From sequence record OZ346158.1: a stretch of DNA of 64,000 nucleotides, one strand, 5' to 3'. Positions within the stretch are counted from its first letter, which is position 1. The number at the start of each line of letters is the position of its first letter. A program made the position numbers and the translations under genes. This stretch comes from a phage. Under the pieces are notes generated by a model. The model was not told the DNA's origin. It saw nothing but the letters and a program-made list of their open reading frames with translations, and ran no database searches. Below, one piece after another: positions 4,488-42,611 of the stretch.

Positions 4488-6881
4488 ATGAGCATGTGGT
4501 CGTTCGACTTTGAGTCATCCGGTTTGCTGGAAGATCCAGATCTTTATTATCACTGCGGCCTGTTTAAAGAGCTGAATAAGAACCGTTTTATGCTGTTCCT
4601 TCCTCTAAATGACCGCACACACTACTCCGAAGAGGATATAGAGAAGGCTAAGAACTTTATTCTGGCAAAGAAAACTCTTCATAAAGATTTTGAAGTTCGC
4701 ATAGCAGATTTTTCGGAGTTGGAAGGTTGGCTTACAGGCAATTCCGACTGGTCACCAACAGCTTTGAACTGCCATAACTGCTACAGTTATGACTTTATGC
4801 TGATGGAAAGATTATCCGGTATTCATTTTGATATGTTCCGTGATCCTAAATGCATGGGGACTATCAACGACCACCAGGTTAACCTGTTTGATACGTTGGC
4901 TATGAGCCGAATCTTGTGGCCTGATCGCCCTTTACCAAAAGGTTGTCCGGACGCTGTATTCAACCCGGTTACTAAGAAAATGCAACCTGTTGGTCCTCAC
5001 GGCCTTATGGCATGGGGCTACGCCCTTGGTAACCAGAAAGTTCAAATTGATGACTGGCGCGATCTTCCGCTGTGGAAATATGTGGATCGTGTGTTCGAGG
5101 ACGTTATCATCCAGGAGTTGCTCTGGAAAGAGTTGGTAGCGGAATCAAAAGGTGTATTCTACGGCAAATCTGACATGCAGAACTTTATGTATGACCCTGC
5201 CAAAGAGAAGCCTAAAGGATTCAAGAAGATTACCTGGAAGAATGCATTACGCCGAGGCATGCTGCAGCATTTCCTGATGGAGCTGCAGGCTCGACAGGGT
5301 GTGTATTTCGACATAGATGGGGCTATTGCTTTACGTGACCGCTGCGATGCGTGGATGAAAGAGATCGCTGATCGTGTTGAACCACAACTTCCTTTAAAAG
5401 AGTTATCAATGTCTCAGCGGCCTAAGTTCCCTGAAAAGCCGTTTAACCAGGATGGGACAATCTCCAATAATGGTTGGAAATGGTTAAAAGATAAGCTTGG
5501 CTATCCTGTAGACATGAGCGCTTTAGAATTCAAAGCCCCGCCTAAGCGAGCATTTACCTCCACAGGAGATGTCAGCAAGATGGGGATAAAATGGTGCGAA
5601 GAGATGGGCTGCAAAGACCCCGACAAGATGGCTGATTTCTTGAGAGGTTATATTAAGGGCACCTCCACACCACAACCTTTACCTAAAGAGCTGATGGATC
5701 AGGCAATAAGTGATCTGCAGCAGAAGCGAATGCCTGACTGCAAGATACCTATGAAAATCAGCAATCAGGACGACATTAAGCGATACCTGATCAGTGCTGG
5801 TTGGCTTCCGACAATGTGGAGAACTAAGGATGTAACTAAGGACAGCAAGAAGAAAGCTCTACCTGATGCAGATGTTGATGCACGAGTATATGCATACATG
5901 GACGAGCTTTTAGAGTCAGAGTATTGTGACCTAATTATCAACTTCTGGAACAAAACTGATGCTAAGTTTCAGACAACAGTGCACAAGTTCCGAAGCTTTC
6001 CTAACTCCGAAAGGATTAAAAAGGAAGTGTTCGGGAAAATACGCAGAAAAGCCAGGGCACTTATTACTTCTCCGCAACTGAAAGATACGTTTGGACACCT
6101 ATGTCCGAATCTTGAAAAATTGAACGGAGAGATGGCTAAAGATATCGTCTTGTGGTTATCATTGCGAAACCGCAGATCGGTCCTTGATCCAATCAAGGAG
6201 GATAAGGTTGATACTGGTCTTCTTAATCACCCACGTTTGAAGATTGACCATAAGCTTCCTGCTAAAAGCTCTGGATTAACAAACACTTCCCGACAGAAAC
6301 ACAGTATTTGTGCAAACATGCCTAAACCATCTCCTAAAGTGGTTATGGGTAAAGAGATGCGTAGCTTGTGGGGTGTTCCTCCTGGATACTTTGAGATCGG
6401 TATTGACGGGTCCAACTTAGAGCAGCTTATCGGGGCTTGGGGTGCCTTTGAGTTCGACAACGGCTTGTACTATGATGTTGTAAGTAACGGGGACGCACAC
6501 CAAAACAATGCTGAGGCATATACAAAAGTAGCAGGCAGAGAGGTGTCTCGTAACGACGGTAAACCTATCACGTATGGGGTTATGTACGGGGCACAAAAAG
6601 ATAAAGTTGCAGATATGCTGGATATCTCCCCAGAGTTGGGGCAAAGGGTGATCGATGCACTTTGGGATGCCAACCCCGGTCTTAAGGGGCGCAAAGAGGA
6701 TCTGGAGAAATTCTGGGAAGCAACGGGTAAGAAGTTTATCTACTCTTTTGATGGTCATGCCATCTGGACCCGATCTAAACACTCTTTACTTAATGCATAC
6801 CAACAGAATGGTGGTGCATCGCTGTGTGACTTGGTTGGGATACTTATGCACCACCAAATGGTGAAGCGTGGGTGGTACGAT
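4488..6881 (+). CDS. DNA polymerase, family A (T7-like), exon 1 (ORF runs to in-frame stop at 6917 inside the intron)
   Basis: N-terminal 3'-5' exo motif FDFESSG; KPITYGVMYGAQ resembles motif B; tail GASLCDLVGILMHHQMVKRGW aligns with the segment just upstream of motif C in T7 gp5 as recalled. Confidence 0.85.
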
Positions 6882-7753
6882 GAAGGTGTTCGTCGTATTA
6901 TTTATTACCATAAATAACATTGTGGCTTCGTGCAGTGATGCACGTCGAAAACCTCTTTAATTGACGGGAAGGCTAAGTTGACTTTTACACCTAAACATGG
7001 TAAAAGCTCAATATGCTAATCCGCAGCGAAGACTAAAGGGGTGTAGTTAAAATGGCTAGATCAGTTGATTATCACGGATATACCGTGTTTGATGATGGAA
7101 CAATACCTTTATCGAAACGTGATCATACAACAATGTTCTGTTTTGATAATGGTCGAGGTTACCTTTGCGTAACCATGTTCATCGAGGGGAAGCAGTGCAC
7201 AAAAGGTGTCCACCACTTGGTTGCTGAATGCTTTGTATCAAACCCTGATCCTGAAAGGCTCACATGGGTGAACCATAAGGACGGAAACAAATACAACAAT
7301 GCATACTGGAACCTTGAATGGACCACCCCTGGTGGAAATATCAAACACGCTTATGATAATGACCTCAGAGTAAGGCCAGTCGGTGAGTATAATGCCAACG
7401 CTGTACTGACCGAGGATGAGGTAACGGAGATTTGCGAACTGTTACAAAGTGGTTTACGACAATGCGAGATTAGGGATCTTGGGTATCCTTATGAGACGGT
7501 CAGAGCCATAAAGCAAAGAAGACAGTGGAAACATATCTCTAAAAACTACACCTGGTAGTAACGTTCAGAGACTATCGAAAGCATAGCGCCAACATAAATT
7601 GGTGCGAAGAAGCGAGTAGAGTAGGCCAGCAAGTGCGGTCGAAATGGGAGGTGCCTTGGTAACAAGGTAGTGAGATAGTCCGATCCATACAGGAAACTGT
7701 ATGGCTGTGCACGTAATGGTGCGGGGTAGCTTAACGACCTACCTGAACTATTG
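6882..7753 (+). mobile_element. group I intron in DNA polymerase gene (boundaries proposed)
   Basis: Conserved core elements read directly: P-like AATTGACGGGAAGG (about 6958-6971), Q AATCCGCAGC (7018-7027), R GTTCAGAGACTA (7563-7574), S GAGATAGTCCGATCC (7672-7686), P9 hairpin with GAAA loop (7685-7704); in-frame stop just after the 5' junction; HNH ORF between Q and R. Confidence 0.8.
7052..7558 (+). CDS. HNH homing endonuclease (I-HmuI-like), intron-encoded
   Basis: VHHLVAECF...VNHKDGNKYNNAYWNLEW HNH motif; own RBS aaagggg; lies inside the polymerase intron. Confidence 0.85.
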   Translation: MARSVDYHGYTVFDDGTIPLSKRDHTTMFCFDNGRGYLCVTMFIEGKQCTKGVHHLVAECFVSNPDPERLTWVNHKDGNKYNNAYWNLEWTTPGGNIKHAYDNDLRVRPVGEYNANAVLTEDEVTEICELLQSGLRQCEIRDLGYPYETVRAIKQRRQWKHISKNYTW

Positions 7754-8107
7754 GATGAGTACCAACTTCAGGTCCCTGACACACCTAAGTATAAGACTGT
7801 GTACACCTTCGACACAATTGAAGAATTGGAAGCATTTAAGGCAGAGCAGGAGGCCAAACTTCATGTGTTCGACGGTCATAAGTACAAAAAGGCACGCAAG
7901 GATGAAAACGGAAACGAAGTGGTTGACAGAGACGGAAACACGGTGTACGATCCTATCCTGAACGATGACGGAAAGCTTGAACTTATCTGGAGCCCTGTGG
8001 GTGAAATGGTGGTGCATTGCTTCTGGCAAGCTTCTAAAATGATGGGCGTTCCATTCCAGATCACAGGTGAATACTTGTGCGGTCGTAACTGGGGTGATTG
8101 TCACTAA
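7754..8107 (+). CDS. DNA polymerase, family A, exon 2 (C-terminal part)
   Basis: Ends ...GRNWGDCH, the family-A C-terminal signature (T7 gp5 ends NWAICH as recalled); proposed junction gives ...KRGWYD|DEYQLQV resembling motif C WVHDEIQV. Confidence 0.7.
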   Translation, partial: DEYQLQVPDTPKYKTVYTFDTIEELEAFKAEQEAKLHVFDGHKYKKARKDENGNEVVDRDGNTVYDPILNDDGKLELIWSPVGEMVVHCFWQASKMMGVPFQITGEYLCGRNWGDCH

Positions 8108-8156
8108 TGTAAACTATCAGCACAGGGAGGTGCTGTTGAGCAAAGAGGAGACTTTT

Positions 8157-8441
8157 ATGGTAGTAGAGCCAACAAAAACATTTACATCCATGACCATTCC
8201 TGTTATTATGCAGGTGGAGTGTGTTCAGGTATCTCAAGTGTGGCCTGGCACCAAAATCCCAACAGGGCCTGATTTCTTTCAGGTTGGGAAAGTGTACAAT
8301 GTCTGGAAGGCACCAGATTGTTACCCTTTCATTAAAGATGACCGTGGGATGCTGTGGTATCTTGGAAATGACTTGACACTGCACCTTGGGAATGCTATTA
8401 TTGCAGTATTCAGACTTAACAAGAAGGAGACCGATCAATGA
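8157..8441 (+). CDS. hypothetical protein
   Basis: ORF track 8067..8441 overlaps polymerase end; internal ATG at 8157 preceded by aagaggag. Confidence 0.5.
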   Translation: MVVEPTKTFTSMTIPVIMQVECVQVSQVWPGTKIPTGPDFFQVGKVYNVWKAPDCYPFIKDDRGMLWYLGNDLTLHLGNAIIAVFRLNKKETDQ

Positions 8442-39690: not shown

Positions 39691-40935
39691 TCAGCAACCA
39701 CAACTTCCGTAGTGCTTAACTCGCTCGATAACTTCCGCTTGCTTACCTTTATTGTAAGGACGGGAGTTAGGACTGGAAAGGTATCCAGACACACGTCGAA
39801 TTACACTGATCGTTCCCTCTTCATGGTTTCCACACTCTGGGCATACAAAGCCTTTAGCTGTTGCACTGAACTCACCAGAGAAACCACACTTGAGACATTT
39901 ATCCACAGGTTGGTTAATACCAAAATACATAATGTGTTTATACCCGAAGTCAACAAGAGCCTCTAAAGCATCCAGGTTGTTTTTCAGGTTAGGTGTTTCT
40001 ACGTATCCGATGTTGCCACCAGAGGAGATCATAGCAAAACCTTCCTCATACTCCCACTTATCAAAAGGAGAGCTATTTATCCATACTGGCTGATGGAAAC
40101 TGTTGGTGAGATATTCATGCTCGTGCTTCAACACTTCCGGATATTCACGATCCAGACAGGTTGCAGCTTTATAGCATAGACTCTCAGAAGGAGTGCCGTA
40201 CAAGCTAAATGCTAGTCTACTTTCCTTCTTGTATCGCTCACAAGCATCTCTCATGTGCTGAAGGATTCCAAGAGCTAAAGCCTTGTCACCCTCTCTGCCC
40301 AAAATCTGACAGGTTTCATACACACCGATATACCCAATACTGATGGAAGCGTACCCGTCATAGAAGAGTTTATCAATACTCTCTTCAGGATCCAGGCGAG
40401 CAAGAGCGCCTTCACACCACATGATGGGGTTCTGCCCTGCCTTTGTTCCTTTTAGACGATTAACCCTTACAAGGTGAGCCTCGTATGCAAGATCCAAGTA
40501 TTCGTCAAGAACTGCAAAGAAATCAACACCTTCCGTCTTGGCTTTTGCCGCAATCATTGGCAGGTTAAGGCTAACAACGCCTAAGTTAAATCTGCCAAGG
40601 TATTTCTCCTCGCCTGTTTCCAAGTCATTGTATTTGCTAAGAAAACTCCTGCAACCCATGCTAGTTACTTTGCCATCTGTCGAGCCTGTCACTTTTCTAT
40701 TTAGTGGTACAGATACGAAGTCAGGATAGATACGTTCTGCACAGCATTCCAGAGCTAATCGTTTCAAATCATAGTTAGGATCCCCAGGGTTCATGTTGAC
40801 ACCCTCTTCCAGGAAGAACAGCACTTTAGGGAACACAGGTGTGATACGTTCTTCACCAAGACCCATTTTGTGGACTTTCAGGTAGTTTTTGGTAATCATT
40901 CTACCAAAGACCGAGGTATCCAGTCCTAAACTCAA
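39691..40935 (-). CDS. nrdD: anaerobic ribonucleoside-triphosphate reductase, exon 2 (C-terminal part; 5' end approximate)
   Basis: FSLYGTPSES, C-terminal Cys cluster and glycyl-radical motif IRRVSGYL; frame continues from intron. Confidence 0.85.
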   Translation of the reverse strand: MSLGLDTSVFGRMITKNYLKVHKMGLGEERITPVFPKVLFFLEEGVNMNPGDPNYDLKRLALECCAERIYPDFVSVPLNRKVTGSTDGKVTSMGCRSFLSKYNDLETGEEKYLGRFNLGVVSLNLPMIAAKAKTEGVDFFAVLDEYLDLAYEAHLVRVNRLKGTKAGQNPIMWCEGALARLDPEESIDKLFYDGYASISIGYIGVYETCQILGREGDKALALGILQHMRDACERYKKESRLAFSLYGTPSESLCYKAATCLDREYPEVLKHEHEYLTNSFHQPVWINSSPFDKWEYEEGFAMISSGGNIGYVETPNLKNNLDALEALVDFGYKHIMYFGINQPVDKCLKCGFSGEFSATAKGFVCPECGNHEEGTISVIRRVSGYLSSPNSRPYNKGKQAEVIERVKHYGSCGC

Positions 40936-41747
40936 TGTGATGAATGGAGTCTGCTGTCTCCTCCCTGTGTTTCCACAGGGCCAGACTATCTCTTACTCTA
41001 CTTCAATAAGATAATAACCCTTTATTGTGAGATGCTTACCTTCGGCATTTCCTTCGATAGCCCTATGAACGTTACCTACGTTCAAATTTAAGGCTTTTGC
41101 ACAGGCATAGAGTGAAGGATATTCACCAACCAAGGTTTTACCTTTGTATGCCTGCACTTTCCTATAGCACTTACCTGGACAAAGTCCTGTTCGGAAAGCA
41201 TGTCTCTTATTATCTTCCGGCAAAACCCACTCTAGGTTAGACGGATGATCATTCAATGTATTGCCATCTTTATGATTCACTTCCCAGTTTTCAGGGTCTA
41301 CTGGGACATCTGGCAAACAATACAAGGCAACAACCCTTGAGGTTTGGATTCGAATCTTTTTGCCTTTGTGGTTGAAAGAGTACATATAACGGCGTTTAAC
41401 ATGCTTGTTACCTTTTCCATAACCTCCCCACAATATTGGGTGTAGCATTCCACGTTTTCCGTATACGTTTCCAACCTCATCAATCACATAGTTTGATTCT
41501 TCACCATTAAGAATGATCTTTTTCATAGAGCCTCTCCATTTCGAAGTTAGTATTTCAACTAACCCCTACACTACTTGGTTCAGAAATGTTTGTCAAGCAT
41601 CTCTGCCTTTCGTTAGTCGTTACAACCGTTCCAACTCCTGTAAGAACTAGTCACGGGATTGGCATAGCTTTCGCCTTAGCGTTCCCCGTTAGCCGGATTT
41701 ACCGACCCCTCTTATGAGGTTAGGAGAGTTTTACAACGGCCAGTTTG
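40936..41747 (-). mobile_element. group I intron in nrdD (boundaries approximate)
   Basis: On - strand: R-like GUAACGACUAAC (about 41610-41622), S-like GAGAUAGUCUGG (40981-40992), P9 hairpin CCCTGTG-GAAA-CACAGGG (40963-40980); HNH ORF embedded. Confidence 0.7.
40993..41526 (-). CDS. HNH homing endonuclease, intron-encoded
   Basis: SRVVALYCLP...VNHKDGNTLNDHPSNLEWV HNH motif; RBS ggagagg; between the two nrdD segments. Confidence 0.85.
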   Translation of the reverse strand: MKKIILNGEESNYVIDEVGNVYGKRGMLHPILWGGYGKGNKHVKRRYMYSFNHKGKKIRIQTSRVVALYCLPDVPVDPENWEVNHKDGNTLNDHPSNLEWVLPEDNKRHAFRTGLCPGKCYRKVQAYKGKTLVGEYPSLYACAKALNLNVGNVHRAIEGNAEGKHLTIKGYYLIEVE

Positions 41748-42611
41748 TTAACCGTTGACAGAAGTTAACGTATTGATTTGATAGAGCAAAGTCTGCATGC
41801 TGTCAAATACGTCTTTATCTGTCATTTGCATTGCAACAGTCTCAGCATCTGGCAACCAATGTTCCTGGCAAAATTTAAGGTTCTTCTCATAGGTCGCTTC
41901 AGCATACTGTGCCAGATAATGATCAATATGGCTCATAGTCTGACCACCATATTGAGCACTAGCTACCGCACTAGAGATTTGGCTAAGGATTGTTGTTGCA
42001 ACCCCTATTGACTTCGGCTTACTGACATGGGCGTTACCAATGTTGAATCCGTTTTCCAACATATCTGGATAATTTACCAAACAACAGTTTGTTAACGGAC
42101 TGATCAAGTAGTCAAGATCATGCACATGGATGAATCCTTTATTGTGCTCTTCGGAGACACGGTCTGGCAGGATCTGTGTTGATGCAAGGTGTTTGCTAAG
42201 AATACCTGCAAGCAGGTCGCGATGAGTGTGTACATGATTAGTAGGCTTATTTGCGTTTTCTTTTGTAAATTCATCACAAGTTCGATCCAAGAAGCCACTA
42301 ATATCTGCAAGCAGTTTTCCACCTGCCTCTCTGTTATTATCTCTTGTCTGTCTATACTGGATGTATTCTCTGGCTGCACATTTTAAACCCATATCCATAA
42401 GAGCATCTTCAACAAGGATATGGATATTTTTTACAGAGATCGTGCACTGGTCGGTTGGTAGATTGTTAGCAACAACTTCATTAACCGCGCAGGCGATCCG
42501 GTAAGCTTCTTCTTCAGTATGTCCAGACTCAAGTAAGGCGGACTCTGCCGCCTTGATCACCTTAATTCCGTTATAGAACTCTTCTCTACCGTCCCGTTTT
42601 ACAACTTTCAC
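41748..42611 (-). CDS. nrdD: anaerobic ribonucleoside-triphosphate reductase, exon 1 (N-terminal part incl. ATP-cone; 3' junction not pinpointed)
   Basis: ATP-cone start MKVVKRDGREEFYNGIKVIKA; ORF ends at a stop just inside the intron. Confidence 0.8.
   Translation of the reverse strand: MKVVKRDGREEFYNGIKVIKAAESALLESGHTEEEAYRIACAVNEVVANNLPTDQCTISVKNIHILVEDALMDMGLKCAAREYIQYRQTRDNNREAGGKLLADISGFLDRTCDEFTKENANKPTNHVHTHRDLLAGILSKHLASTQILPDRVSEEHNKGFIHVHDLDYLISPLTNCCLVNYPDMLENGFNIGNAHVSKPKSIGVATTILSQISSAVASAQYGGQTMSHIDHYLAQYAEATYEKNLKFCQEHWLPDAETVAMQMTDKDVFDSMQTLLYQINTLTSVNG

Follow-up and report, generated by a model that had tools for sequence, protein, structure and literature searches.

The td, nrdB and nrdD (sunY) introns of phage T4 are IA2-type group I introns in which the open reading frame (ORF) of an endonuclease is looped out from a peripheral helix, an in-frame stop lies just inside the intron, and RNA structure controls translation of the endonuclease. 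Their endonucleases are of the GIY-YIG type (I-TevI, I-TevII) or of a defective HNH type (I-TevIII), and their host genes differ from the one considered here, which encodes the family-A DNA polymerase of a Vequintavirus (an rV5-like Escherichia coli myophage). That gene lies in a 64,000-nucleotide (nt) stretch of phage DNA, record OZ346158.1; the whole stretch is referred to below as the window. The interval from 6912 to 7753 divides the gene, and we hold with high confidence that it is a mobile IA2-type group I intron, inserted between the His and Asp codons of motif C in a T7-like family-A polymerase gene of a Vequintavirus coliphage.

Comparison with known polymerase introns

Site 881 of family-A polymerases, in E. 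coli Pol I numbering, is one that we take to be the His of motif C (Klenow H881, D882, E883) and therefore the same position as that of the window intron. Introns at polymerase site 881 have been described in the T7-like phages PhiI and W31; they are of IA2 type and carry an HNH gene (I-TslI) in P6a (PMC3428280). We liken them to the window intron on the strength of that published description, their host phages being podoviruses with genomes of about 40 kb. The polymerase introns of the I-HmuI type resemble the window intron in being group I introns within a family-A polymerase gene, accompanied by a nicking HNH endonuclease, but they occupy site 674 (E. coli numbering), in the finger subdomain, and belong to Gram-positive hosts (PMC3428280).

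Splicing of an intron at the same site as ours was shown by reverse transcription PCR in Pectobacterium phage CB7, where the HNH gene CB7_50 lies between exons CB7_51 and CB7_49 (PMC7344957). The introns of CB7 and PhiTE (Certrevirus, Vequintavirinae) share with the window intron the site YYH/DE (here and below a slash marks an exon junction), homologous P1–P3 and P7–P9.2, and 73–75% nt identity in the 3′ part; they differ from it in a shorter endonuclease ORF, of 127 amino acids (aa), and in a diverged P4–P6. A second group I intron, which has an HNH gene of its own, precedes the HDE-site intron in Certrevirus polymerase genes (PhiTE segment 362–565; CB7_53/52/51; 40.8 bits against RF00028, the Rfam model of group I introns) and has no counterpart in the window.

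Within Vequintavirus, the same intron, alike in site and in HNH ORF, is found in the BASEL phages EmilHeitz (MZ501062), HeinrichReichert (MZ501073) and WalterGehring (MZ501111), and also in FV3 and APECc02, with no difference of substance. Intron boundaries in the BASEL genomes were annotated by comparative genomics (PMC8594841), and the EmilHeitz and HeinrichReichert records give the polymerase as a joined coding sequence (CDS) in two pieces together with a 'putative homing endonuclease'. As an element it was known before, with annotations in sister genomes, and among mobile phage introns of IA2 type it is nothing out of the ordinary. In many other records, that of rV5 included, the polymerase is left as separate fragments or hypothetical proteins; the rV5 record, which carries an intron of 276 nt without an ORF, lists hypothetical ORFs 225–227 and a truncated polymerase described as 775 aa.

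The main consequence of the analysis lies in annotation, since a truncated polymerase and 'hypothetical' fragments stand in many Vequintavirus genomes, including that of the type phage rV5. Correctly annotated, the gene has the junction U6911/G7754 and encodes an enzyme of 925 aa whose HDE active site is normal. The locus also provides one more case in which a homing-endonuclease intron targets an essential phage gene in its most conserved codons, at the position known from PhiI and W31. Current understanding is unchanged by it. As an intron it is no novelty; what is unexplored is the range of alleles found at the polymerase site, and this allele series could serve studies of how introns and endonuclease genes combine.

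The polymerase gene and its exon junction

The polymerase gene spans 4488–8107 on the plus strand, as do all features of the gene and its intron described below. Over this interval the window is 97–99% identical to WalterGehring, to HeinrichReichert and to some 120 other records. The first ORF, 4488–6917 (809 codons), comes after a primase-helicase gene; it ends at the TAA at 6915–6917 and covers only positions 137–261 of the 381-position Pfam DNA_pol_A profile. The C-terminal sequence GRNWGDCH is encoded in a second ORF, 7751–8107 (118 codons, with a possible TTG start at 7751), in a different frame. An earlier note on this DNA, prepared from its letters and translated ORFs, had remarked that the polymerase ORF stops at 6917 while incomplete and continues downstream in another frame, and had attributed the break to a group I intron bearing an HNH gene. 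All of this stands, the intron being supported by its match to RF00028, by covariation and by alleles without it.

The ends of the exons were set by alignment to uninterrupted alleles. In six of these from Vequintavirus (JES2013, DrSchubert, nomo, Murica, EI-SP-GF and NHEP1) the site always reads ...TATTACCAT/GAYGARTAYCAR..., with the consensus ...TATTACCAT/GAYGARTAY...; in the window allele ...TATTACCAT is followed by 842 nt and then by GATGAGTACCAA.... The boundary is unable to slide, because the intron has A as its first base and G as its last and the adjoining exon bases are G and T. The junction is U6911/G7754, and the intron occupies 6912–7753. It begins AAAUAA, which contains the in-frame stop at 6915–6917, and ends with the omega-G at 7753, which the earlier note had likewise taken, correctly by comparison with the intron-less alleles, as the last intron base.

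Exon 1 (4488–6911, 808 codons) ends ...RRIIYYH, its last base being U6911, and exon 2 (7754–8107, 117 codons plus a stop, DEYQLQV...GRNWGDCH) is colinear with uninterrupted homologues. The ligated RNA is predicted to read ...UAUUACCAU/GAUGAGUAC..., or in a longer form ...UAUUACCAU/GAUGAGUACCAA.... Its predicted product is a polymerase of 925 aa reading ...RRIIYYH/DEYQLQV..., that is ...GWYDEGVRRIIYYH/DEYQLQV..., with the peptide ...IIYYHDEYQLQVPDTPK across the exon junction. A 179-aa peptide across the predicted splice junction was 100% identical to uninterrupted genes, in one piece of 537 nt, and the whole spliced protein of the window was found verbatim in the protein collection. The spliced HeinrichReichert protein equals the uninterrupted DrSchubert/nomine polymerase over all 925 aa. 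A pattern scan of a viral contig collection for intron-bearing junctions returned one contig.

Once the exons are joined, the HDE of motif C and the C-terminal ...NW..CH are contiguous. T7 DNA polymerase aligned to the spliced protein with E = 2e-13, and HDE was matched to T7 H653-D654-E655 (query ...yyHDEyql, T7 ...wvHDEIQV(658)). Motif C of the spliced polymerase is an ordinary HDE, and the intron lies between the equivalents of T7 H653 and D654. Past motif C, exon 2 is about 66 residues longer than T7 gp5 (117 aa against 51 from D654 to the T7 C-terminus, which comes 49 residues after E655), and the surplus of about 65 residues anticipated in the earlier note agrees with this.

One further observation on this gene comes from other phages. 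VB-EcoM-WM (segment 501–3899), NHEP1 and probably Mangalyan, in which the match spans the same extra 970 nt or so, have an in-frame insertion of 323 aa in the polymerase after ...NGDAH, equivalent to a position after window base 6500. The window lacks this insertion, whose first residue is Cys and whose last residues, ...VAVCGN, precede another Cys; these end residues are the basis for calling it intein-like, and Pfam gave no match.

Ribozyme fold, covariation and subgroup

Searched in E-value mode, RF00028 matched 6902–7703 end to end (model positions 1–253) with 38.9 bits, E = 3.4e-8 for the local search and 2.1e-6 for the whole 64-kb window; the covariance-model search that the earlier note had recommended thus came out in favour of a group I intron. 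The four core elements were at the places given there, each at the matching position of the RF00028 consensus: P at 6959–6972 (AATTGACGGGAAGG), Q at 7018–7027 (AATCCGCAGC), R at 7563–7574 (GTTCAGAGACTA) and S at 7672–7686 (GAGATAGTCCGATCC). The P9 hairpin with a GAAA loop that it described is also present, at 7685–7704.

Base pairing was examined in an alignment of 11 same-site introns with their ORFs deleted, drawn from Vequintavirus, Avunavirus, Seunavirus and A5-4 (all Vequintavirinae), Salmonella phage R7, and phages of Aeromonas, Pseudomonas and Vibrio. Standard pairs filled 98.0% of 748 cells, as compared with 35–39% when partners were slid by 1–3 columns. Of the 68 pairs, 34 were altered on both sides, the P3/P7 pseudoknot included, a number reached in 0 of 500 shuffles. 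RNAalifold recovered P1, P2, P3, P4, P5, P6, P6a, P7.2, P8, P9, P9.1 and P9.2, with 32 compensatory pairs. Compensatory substitutions throughout a complete core, across several phage genera, imply selection for folding. A helix drawn by RNAalifold between columns 321–325 and 396–400 was discarded as spurious, the P3/P7 pseudoknot not being representable by that program; it was replaced by P7, which was checked by pair counting.

The P1 hairpin (6908–6925), taken from the Rfam alignment, pairs CCAUAA at 6908–6913 with UUGUGG at 6920–6925, and its six pairs are kept in all 11 introns. Rfam places P1 at 6906–6927, and the 5′ splice site, after U6911, falls in a U6911·G6922 wobble within it. Bases 6918–6921 (CAUU) are the candidate P10 guide; as read from the sequence, they can form 4 bp with GAUG at the start of exon 2 (7754–7757). 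Of the 11 aligned introns, 10 are followed by the exon 2 GAU, and the P10 columns are nearly invariant, with no covariation. P2 (6929–6944, CGUGCA with UGCACG, GUGA loop) has changed on both sides in five of its six pairs among the homologues.

In the core, the 5′ strand of P3 (6952–6957, CCUCUU) pairs with GGGAGG of its 3′ strand (7646–7651), three of the six pairs being compensatory. The P4–P5 domain (6962–7025) consists of P4 (6962–6967 with 7020–7025, in elements P and Q) and P5 (6971–6973 with 7015–7017); a P5a/b extension (6977–6988 with 7000–7012) is suggested by the minimum-energy fold and by compensating changes in the Av-05 sequence. P6 pairs 7026–7028 with 7562–7564. P7 (7566–7682) contains R and S and pairs CAGAGACUA at 7566–7574 with UAGUCCG at 7676–7682, forming a pseudoknot with P3, whose 3′ strand lies inside it; two of its pairs are compensatory (G-C to A-U and U-A to C-G), with no broken cells. 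Many compensatory changes were seen in P8 (7652–7669, GUAA loop), and further ones in P9 (four of seven pairs), P9.1 (7710–7721; two of three) and P9.2 (7724–7744; three of six), after which a 3′ tail leads to the omega-G at 7753.

Introns of subgroup IA2 are marked by two extra helices, P7.1 and P7.2, which are linked by G-U-A and separate P7 from the 3′ strand of P3 (PMC3428280). The window intron has a P7.1 (7575–7615) predicted by the minimum-energy fold, a GUA linker at 7621–7623 that is conserved in the alignment, and a P7.2 (7624–7640) with many compensatory changes. Its architecture appears on this model to be of IA2 type, within a subgroup that is itself heterogeneous (PMC11878797).

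The endonuclease gene in P6a

The loop of P6a holds an ORF at 7052–7558, between Q and R, encoding a protein of 168 aa that the earlier note had recognised as an I-HmuI-like HNH endonuclease. The solved structure closest to it is indeed I-HmuI (PDB 1U3E, E = 4.5e-6 over residues 12–100), and its HNH motif, HHLVAECF...NHKDGNKYNNAYWNLEW, aligns with HRLVAIHF...DHKDGNKDNNLSTNLRW of I-HmuI. The protein falls in PHROG 59, 'HNH endonuclease' (E = 9e-38), and the exact sequence is present in public databases as a Vequintavirus 'Homing endonuclease'. The ORF is intact, with DNA conservation of 94–100% across the 33 records of the full intron.

The ORF loop is closed by a long-range P6a helix, in which ACUA at 7032–7035 pairs with UAGU at 7556–7559 and GGUGUAGUU at 7040–7048 with AACUACACC at 7544–7552. 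The duplex has an energy of −17.7 kcal/mol, and 300 control segments inside the ORF gave −6.9 ± 2.6. The helix overlaps a Shine-Dalgarno-like AAGGGG upstream of the HNH start and takes in the last codons of the ORF and its stop. An equivalent helix, of differing sequence, was found in all six HNH-bearing lineages examined; Av-05 compensates (GGUAUAGU with ACUAUACU), and in A5-4 and SSE121 the helix covers the start codon too. We infer that, while the ribozyme is folded, the ribosome-binding site of the HNH gene would be hidden, and that a ribosome reading to the end of this ORF would open P6a. A scan of 6800–8300 for promoters and terminators gave nothing beyond chance and hence no evidence of a separate HNH promoter.

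Alleles at the polymerase site

Population counts were taken from the phage GenBank collection. The 842-nt form was present in 33 of 117 Vequintavirus records, and the rest had either an ORF-less intron of 276 or 329 nt or none, always at the same site. Sixty Vequintavirus records, sampled at even spacing, comprised 28 uninterrupted alleles, 15 with an ORF-less intron and 17 with the HNH intron. Presence and absence are therefore polymorphic at exactly one site among close genomes, with the endonuclease gene inside the intron. The window intron is 100% identical to that of EmilHeitz and 94–99.6% identical to those of 32 further records.

Introns at the same site (...YH/DE...) also occur in the Avunavirus phages Av-05 and 24-2-1, in A5-4 (Vequintavirinae), in the Seunavirus SSE121, in Salmonella phage R7, in the Certrevirus phages PhiTE and CB7, and further in Aeromonas phage phiA019, Pseudomonas phage SPA01 and Vibrio phage K412. 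The backbone at this site comes in several variants: some are ORF-less (254–329 nt), others hold an HNH gene in P6a or a LAGLIDADG gene in P7.1/P7.2, and there is also the 276-nt form.

Two of these variants were looked at individually. The 276-nt ORF-less intron, found at this site in EPFV3 (segment 787–1062), rV5 (DQ832317), LL12 and RudolfGeigy, agrees with the Vequintavirus intron in 58 of the first 60 aligned columns and 54 of the last 55, with a core only about 58–76% identical; its P9 is identical in 19 of 19 positions to that of the Seunavirus and A5-4 introns. Such mosaic identity suggests recombination between intron lineages. Salmonella phage vB_Sen_SG_WM_RUS_R7 (segment 401–1319) has the same backbone at the same site; it lacks the HNH gene of P6a and has a 197-aa LAGLIDADG ORF in the P7.1/P7.2 region, which indicates that one ribozyme was independently invaded by two endonuclease families.

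The exon 2 flank also varies. Its first 12 nt (7754–7765) read GATGAGTACCAA in six of seven intron-bearing alleles and GACGAATATCAG in five of six intron-less ones, a small sample, and the two classes differ by four synonymous changes within those 12 nt. The JES2013 type is ...CCAT/GACGAATATCAG; Murica is intron-less with the flank of the intron-bearing type (...CCAT/GATGAGTACCAA). The pattern could reflect co-conversion, the precise loss of an intron, a P10 that requires U7756, or a target site that has escaped the endonuclease. Tentatively, the series of alleles at this one polymerase site could record that endonucleases invaded one intron repeatedly and independently, that ribozyme cores recombined, and that the target site, in an essential codon of the active site, escaped, though we think this rather less than an even chance.

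Proposed mechanism and alternative explanations

The proposed sequence of events is as follows: the intron in the pre-mRNA would fold into a P1–P10 ribozyme, and an external guanosine would attack after U6911, a base that its wobble with G6922 keeps in P1. Exon 1, once released, would then attack after the omega-G at 7753, exon 2 being aligned by the 4-bp P10, and the outcome would be an mRNA for the 925-aa polymerase (...IIYYH-DEYQLQV...). The P6a loop would meanwhile carry the 168-aa I-HmuI-like HNH gene with its ribosome-binding site buried in the helix. By analogy with I-HmuI, I-BasI, I-PfoP3I and I-TslI (PMC3428280), the endonuclease is expected, in a mixed infection, to make a nick or cut close to the insertion site in polymerase alleles that lack the intron. 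Repair from an intron-bearing genome would copy the intron into the cut allele (homing). Self-splicing of the window copy, the activity and specificity of its endonuclease, and homing are what we infer; computation itself gave the ribozyme fold and its covariation, the precise place where the exons join, the family of the endonuclease and the presence/absence polymorphism at one site.

Several results weigh against this interpretation. Support for the window phage itself is computational. In gathering mode, an Rfam scan of the whole 64-kb window gave no match at all, those to RF00028 appearing in E-value mode only; the intact window copy scores 38.9 bits against a gathering score of 50. The low score is plausibly due to the ORF insert in P6a, which the alignment holds as a 510-nt insertion: the ORF-less version of this intron in phage JLBYU08, 329 nt long and 93.5% identical where the two can be compared, scores 72.5 bits, and same-site introns of other phages score 64.7–91.2. 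The alignment used for pair counting was trimmed by hand, and since P1 and P10 are invariant across homologues, the evidence for these two helices consists of complementarity and position. Two protein profiles also fell short, DNA_pol_A on the spliced polymerase (31.8 bits; cut-off 34.3) and Pfam HNH_3 on the 168-aa protein (17.7 bits; cut-off 24.8).

The alternatives differ in how much of this picture they change. The earlier note had the same intron with its 5′ splice after U6881, 30 nt upstream of the true end of exon 1, a P1 of ACGAU (6877–6881) with GUCGU (6892–6896), the junction GGUACGAU/GAUGAG, and a motif C of YDDE (KRGWYD/DEYQLQV). The 5-bp complementarity does exist, and 'WYDE' bears a superficial likeness to 'VHDE', yet bases 6882–6911 are kept as coding sequence (EGVRRIIYYH) in the six uninterrupted alleles and in every intron-bearing relative at this site, so that splicing after U6881 would yield a 916-aa product without 10 residues found in all uninterrupted homologues. 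The Rfam P1 is also elsewhere (6906–6927). With exon 1 ending at U6911, the P1 proposed there is wholly exonic and a YDDE motif C does not exist. Alignment of the spliced product to a family-A polymerase, which the note had suggested as a check, showed motif C restored and at the same time contradicted the YDDE reading: WYDEG falls upstream of motif C, where 'WYDE' lies opposite 'W-DG' of T7 (query ...W-YDEGVRRIIYYHDEYQL, T7 ...W-DGDFAYMAWVHDEIQV(658)). We give splicing after U6881 practically no chance.

A broader departure would be that nothing is spliced and the polymerase is truly split, two polypeptides of 809 and about 118 aa assembling, with a free-standing HNH gene and a decayed intron remnant between their genes. 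Split phage polymerases do occur in other phage groups, many GenBank records list two separate 'DNA polymerase' CDSs here, and a TTG at 7751 could start the downstream piece. The break would nevertheless fall between the H and D of the catalytic HDE triad, and the exon junction reproduces uninterrupted proteins exactly. A complete ribozyme core is kept by compensatory substitutions across several phage genera, ORF-less alleles retain a ribozyme of 254–329 nt and nothing else, and in CB7 the intron at this site undergoes splicing in vivo (PMC7344957). A split polymerase is therefore very improbable. Somewhat less so, but still unlikely, is a real intron that depends on protein or translation, or whose endonuclease is inactive, and which persists as a fixed, immobile passenger. 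An HNH-bearing phage intron, CB7_245, did not splice under the conditions tested (PMC7344957), and ORF-less derivatives are common, which means that the endonuclease gene is often lost. In the window, however, the HNH ORF is intact, conserved at 94–100% in the 33 records, and its catalytic HNH residues align with those of I-HmuI, while the ribozyme core is intact, with a canonical G-binding P7, the omega-G and the U·G wobble. A mobile group I intron at 6912–7753 thus accounts best for the locus. An intein at these positions was rejected, since the insert is interrupted by stops whichever frame is taken relative to exon 1, and exon 2 lies in a different frame.

Other observations

More than 12 records of the series MG0656xx ('Campylobacter phage C7, C12, A147 ...', labelled C. 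jejuni) are 87–99% identical to E. coli Vequintavirus in the polymerase and nrdD regions, and their host labels look doubtful.

Like T4 with its nrdD (sunY) intron, the window has an intron in nrdD (anaerobic ribonucleotide reductase). This second mobile group I intron, of 797 nt, lies at 40954–41750 on the minus strand and splits the gene into flanking ORFs at 41748–42611 and 39691–40935, both also on the minus strand. RF00028 matched it with 27.8 bits (E = 1.5e-4, local). Its inner ORF (40993–41526, minus strand) encodes a 177-aa HNH protein, with 29.1 bits against Pfam HNH_3 and a weak NUMOD-like match to I-HmuI. By comparison with the uninterrupted gene of JES2013 the junction is ...AACGGU/CAGACU..., the intron starting UAA and ending in a terminal G. 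Sister phages have at this site the full intron, an ORF-less one of about 257 nt, or no intron, and in WalterGehring the locus is annotated as 'class III anaerobic NTP reductase' and 'putative homing endonuclease'.

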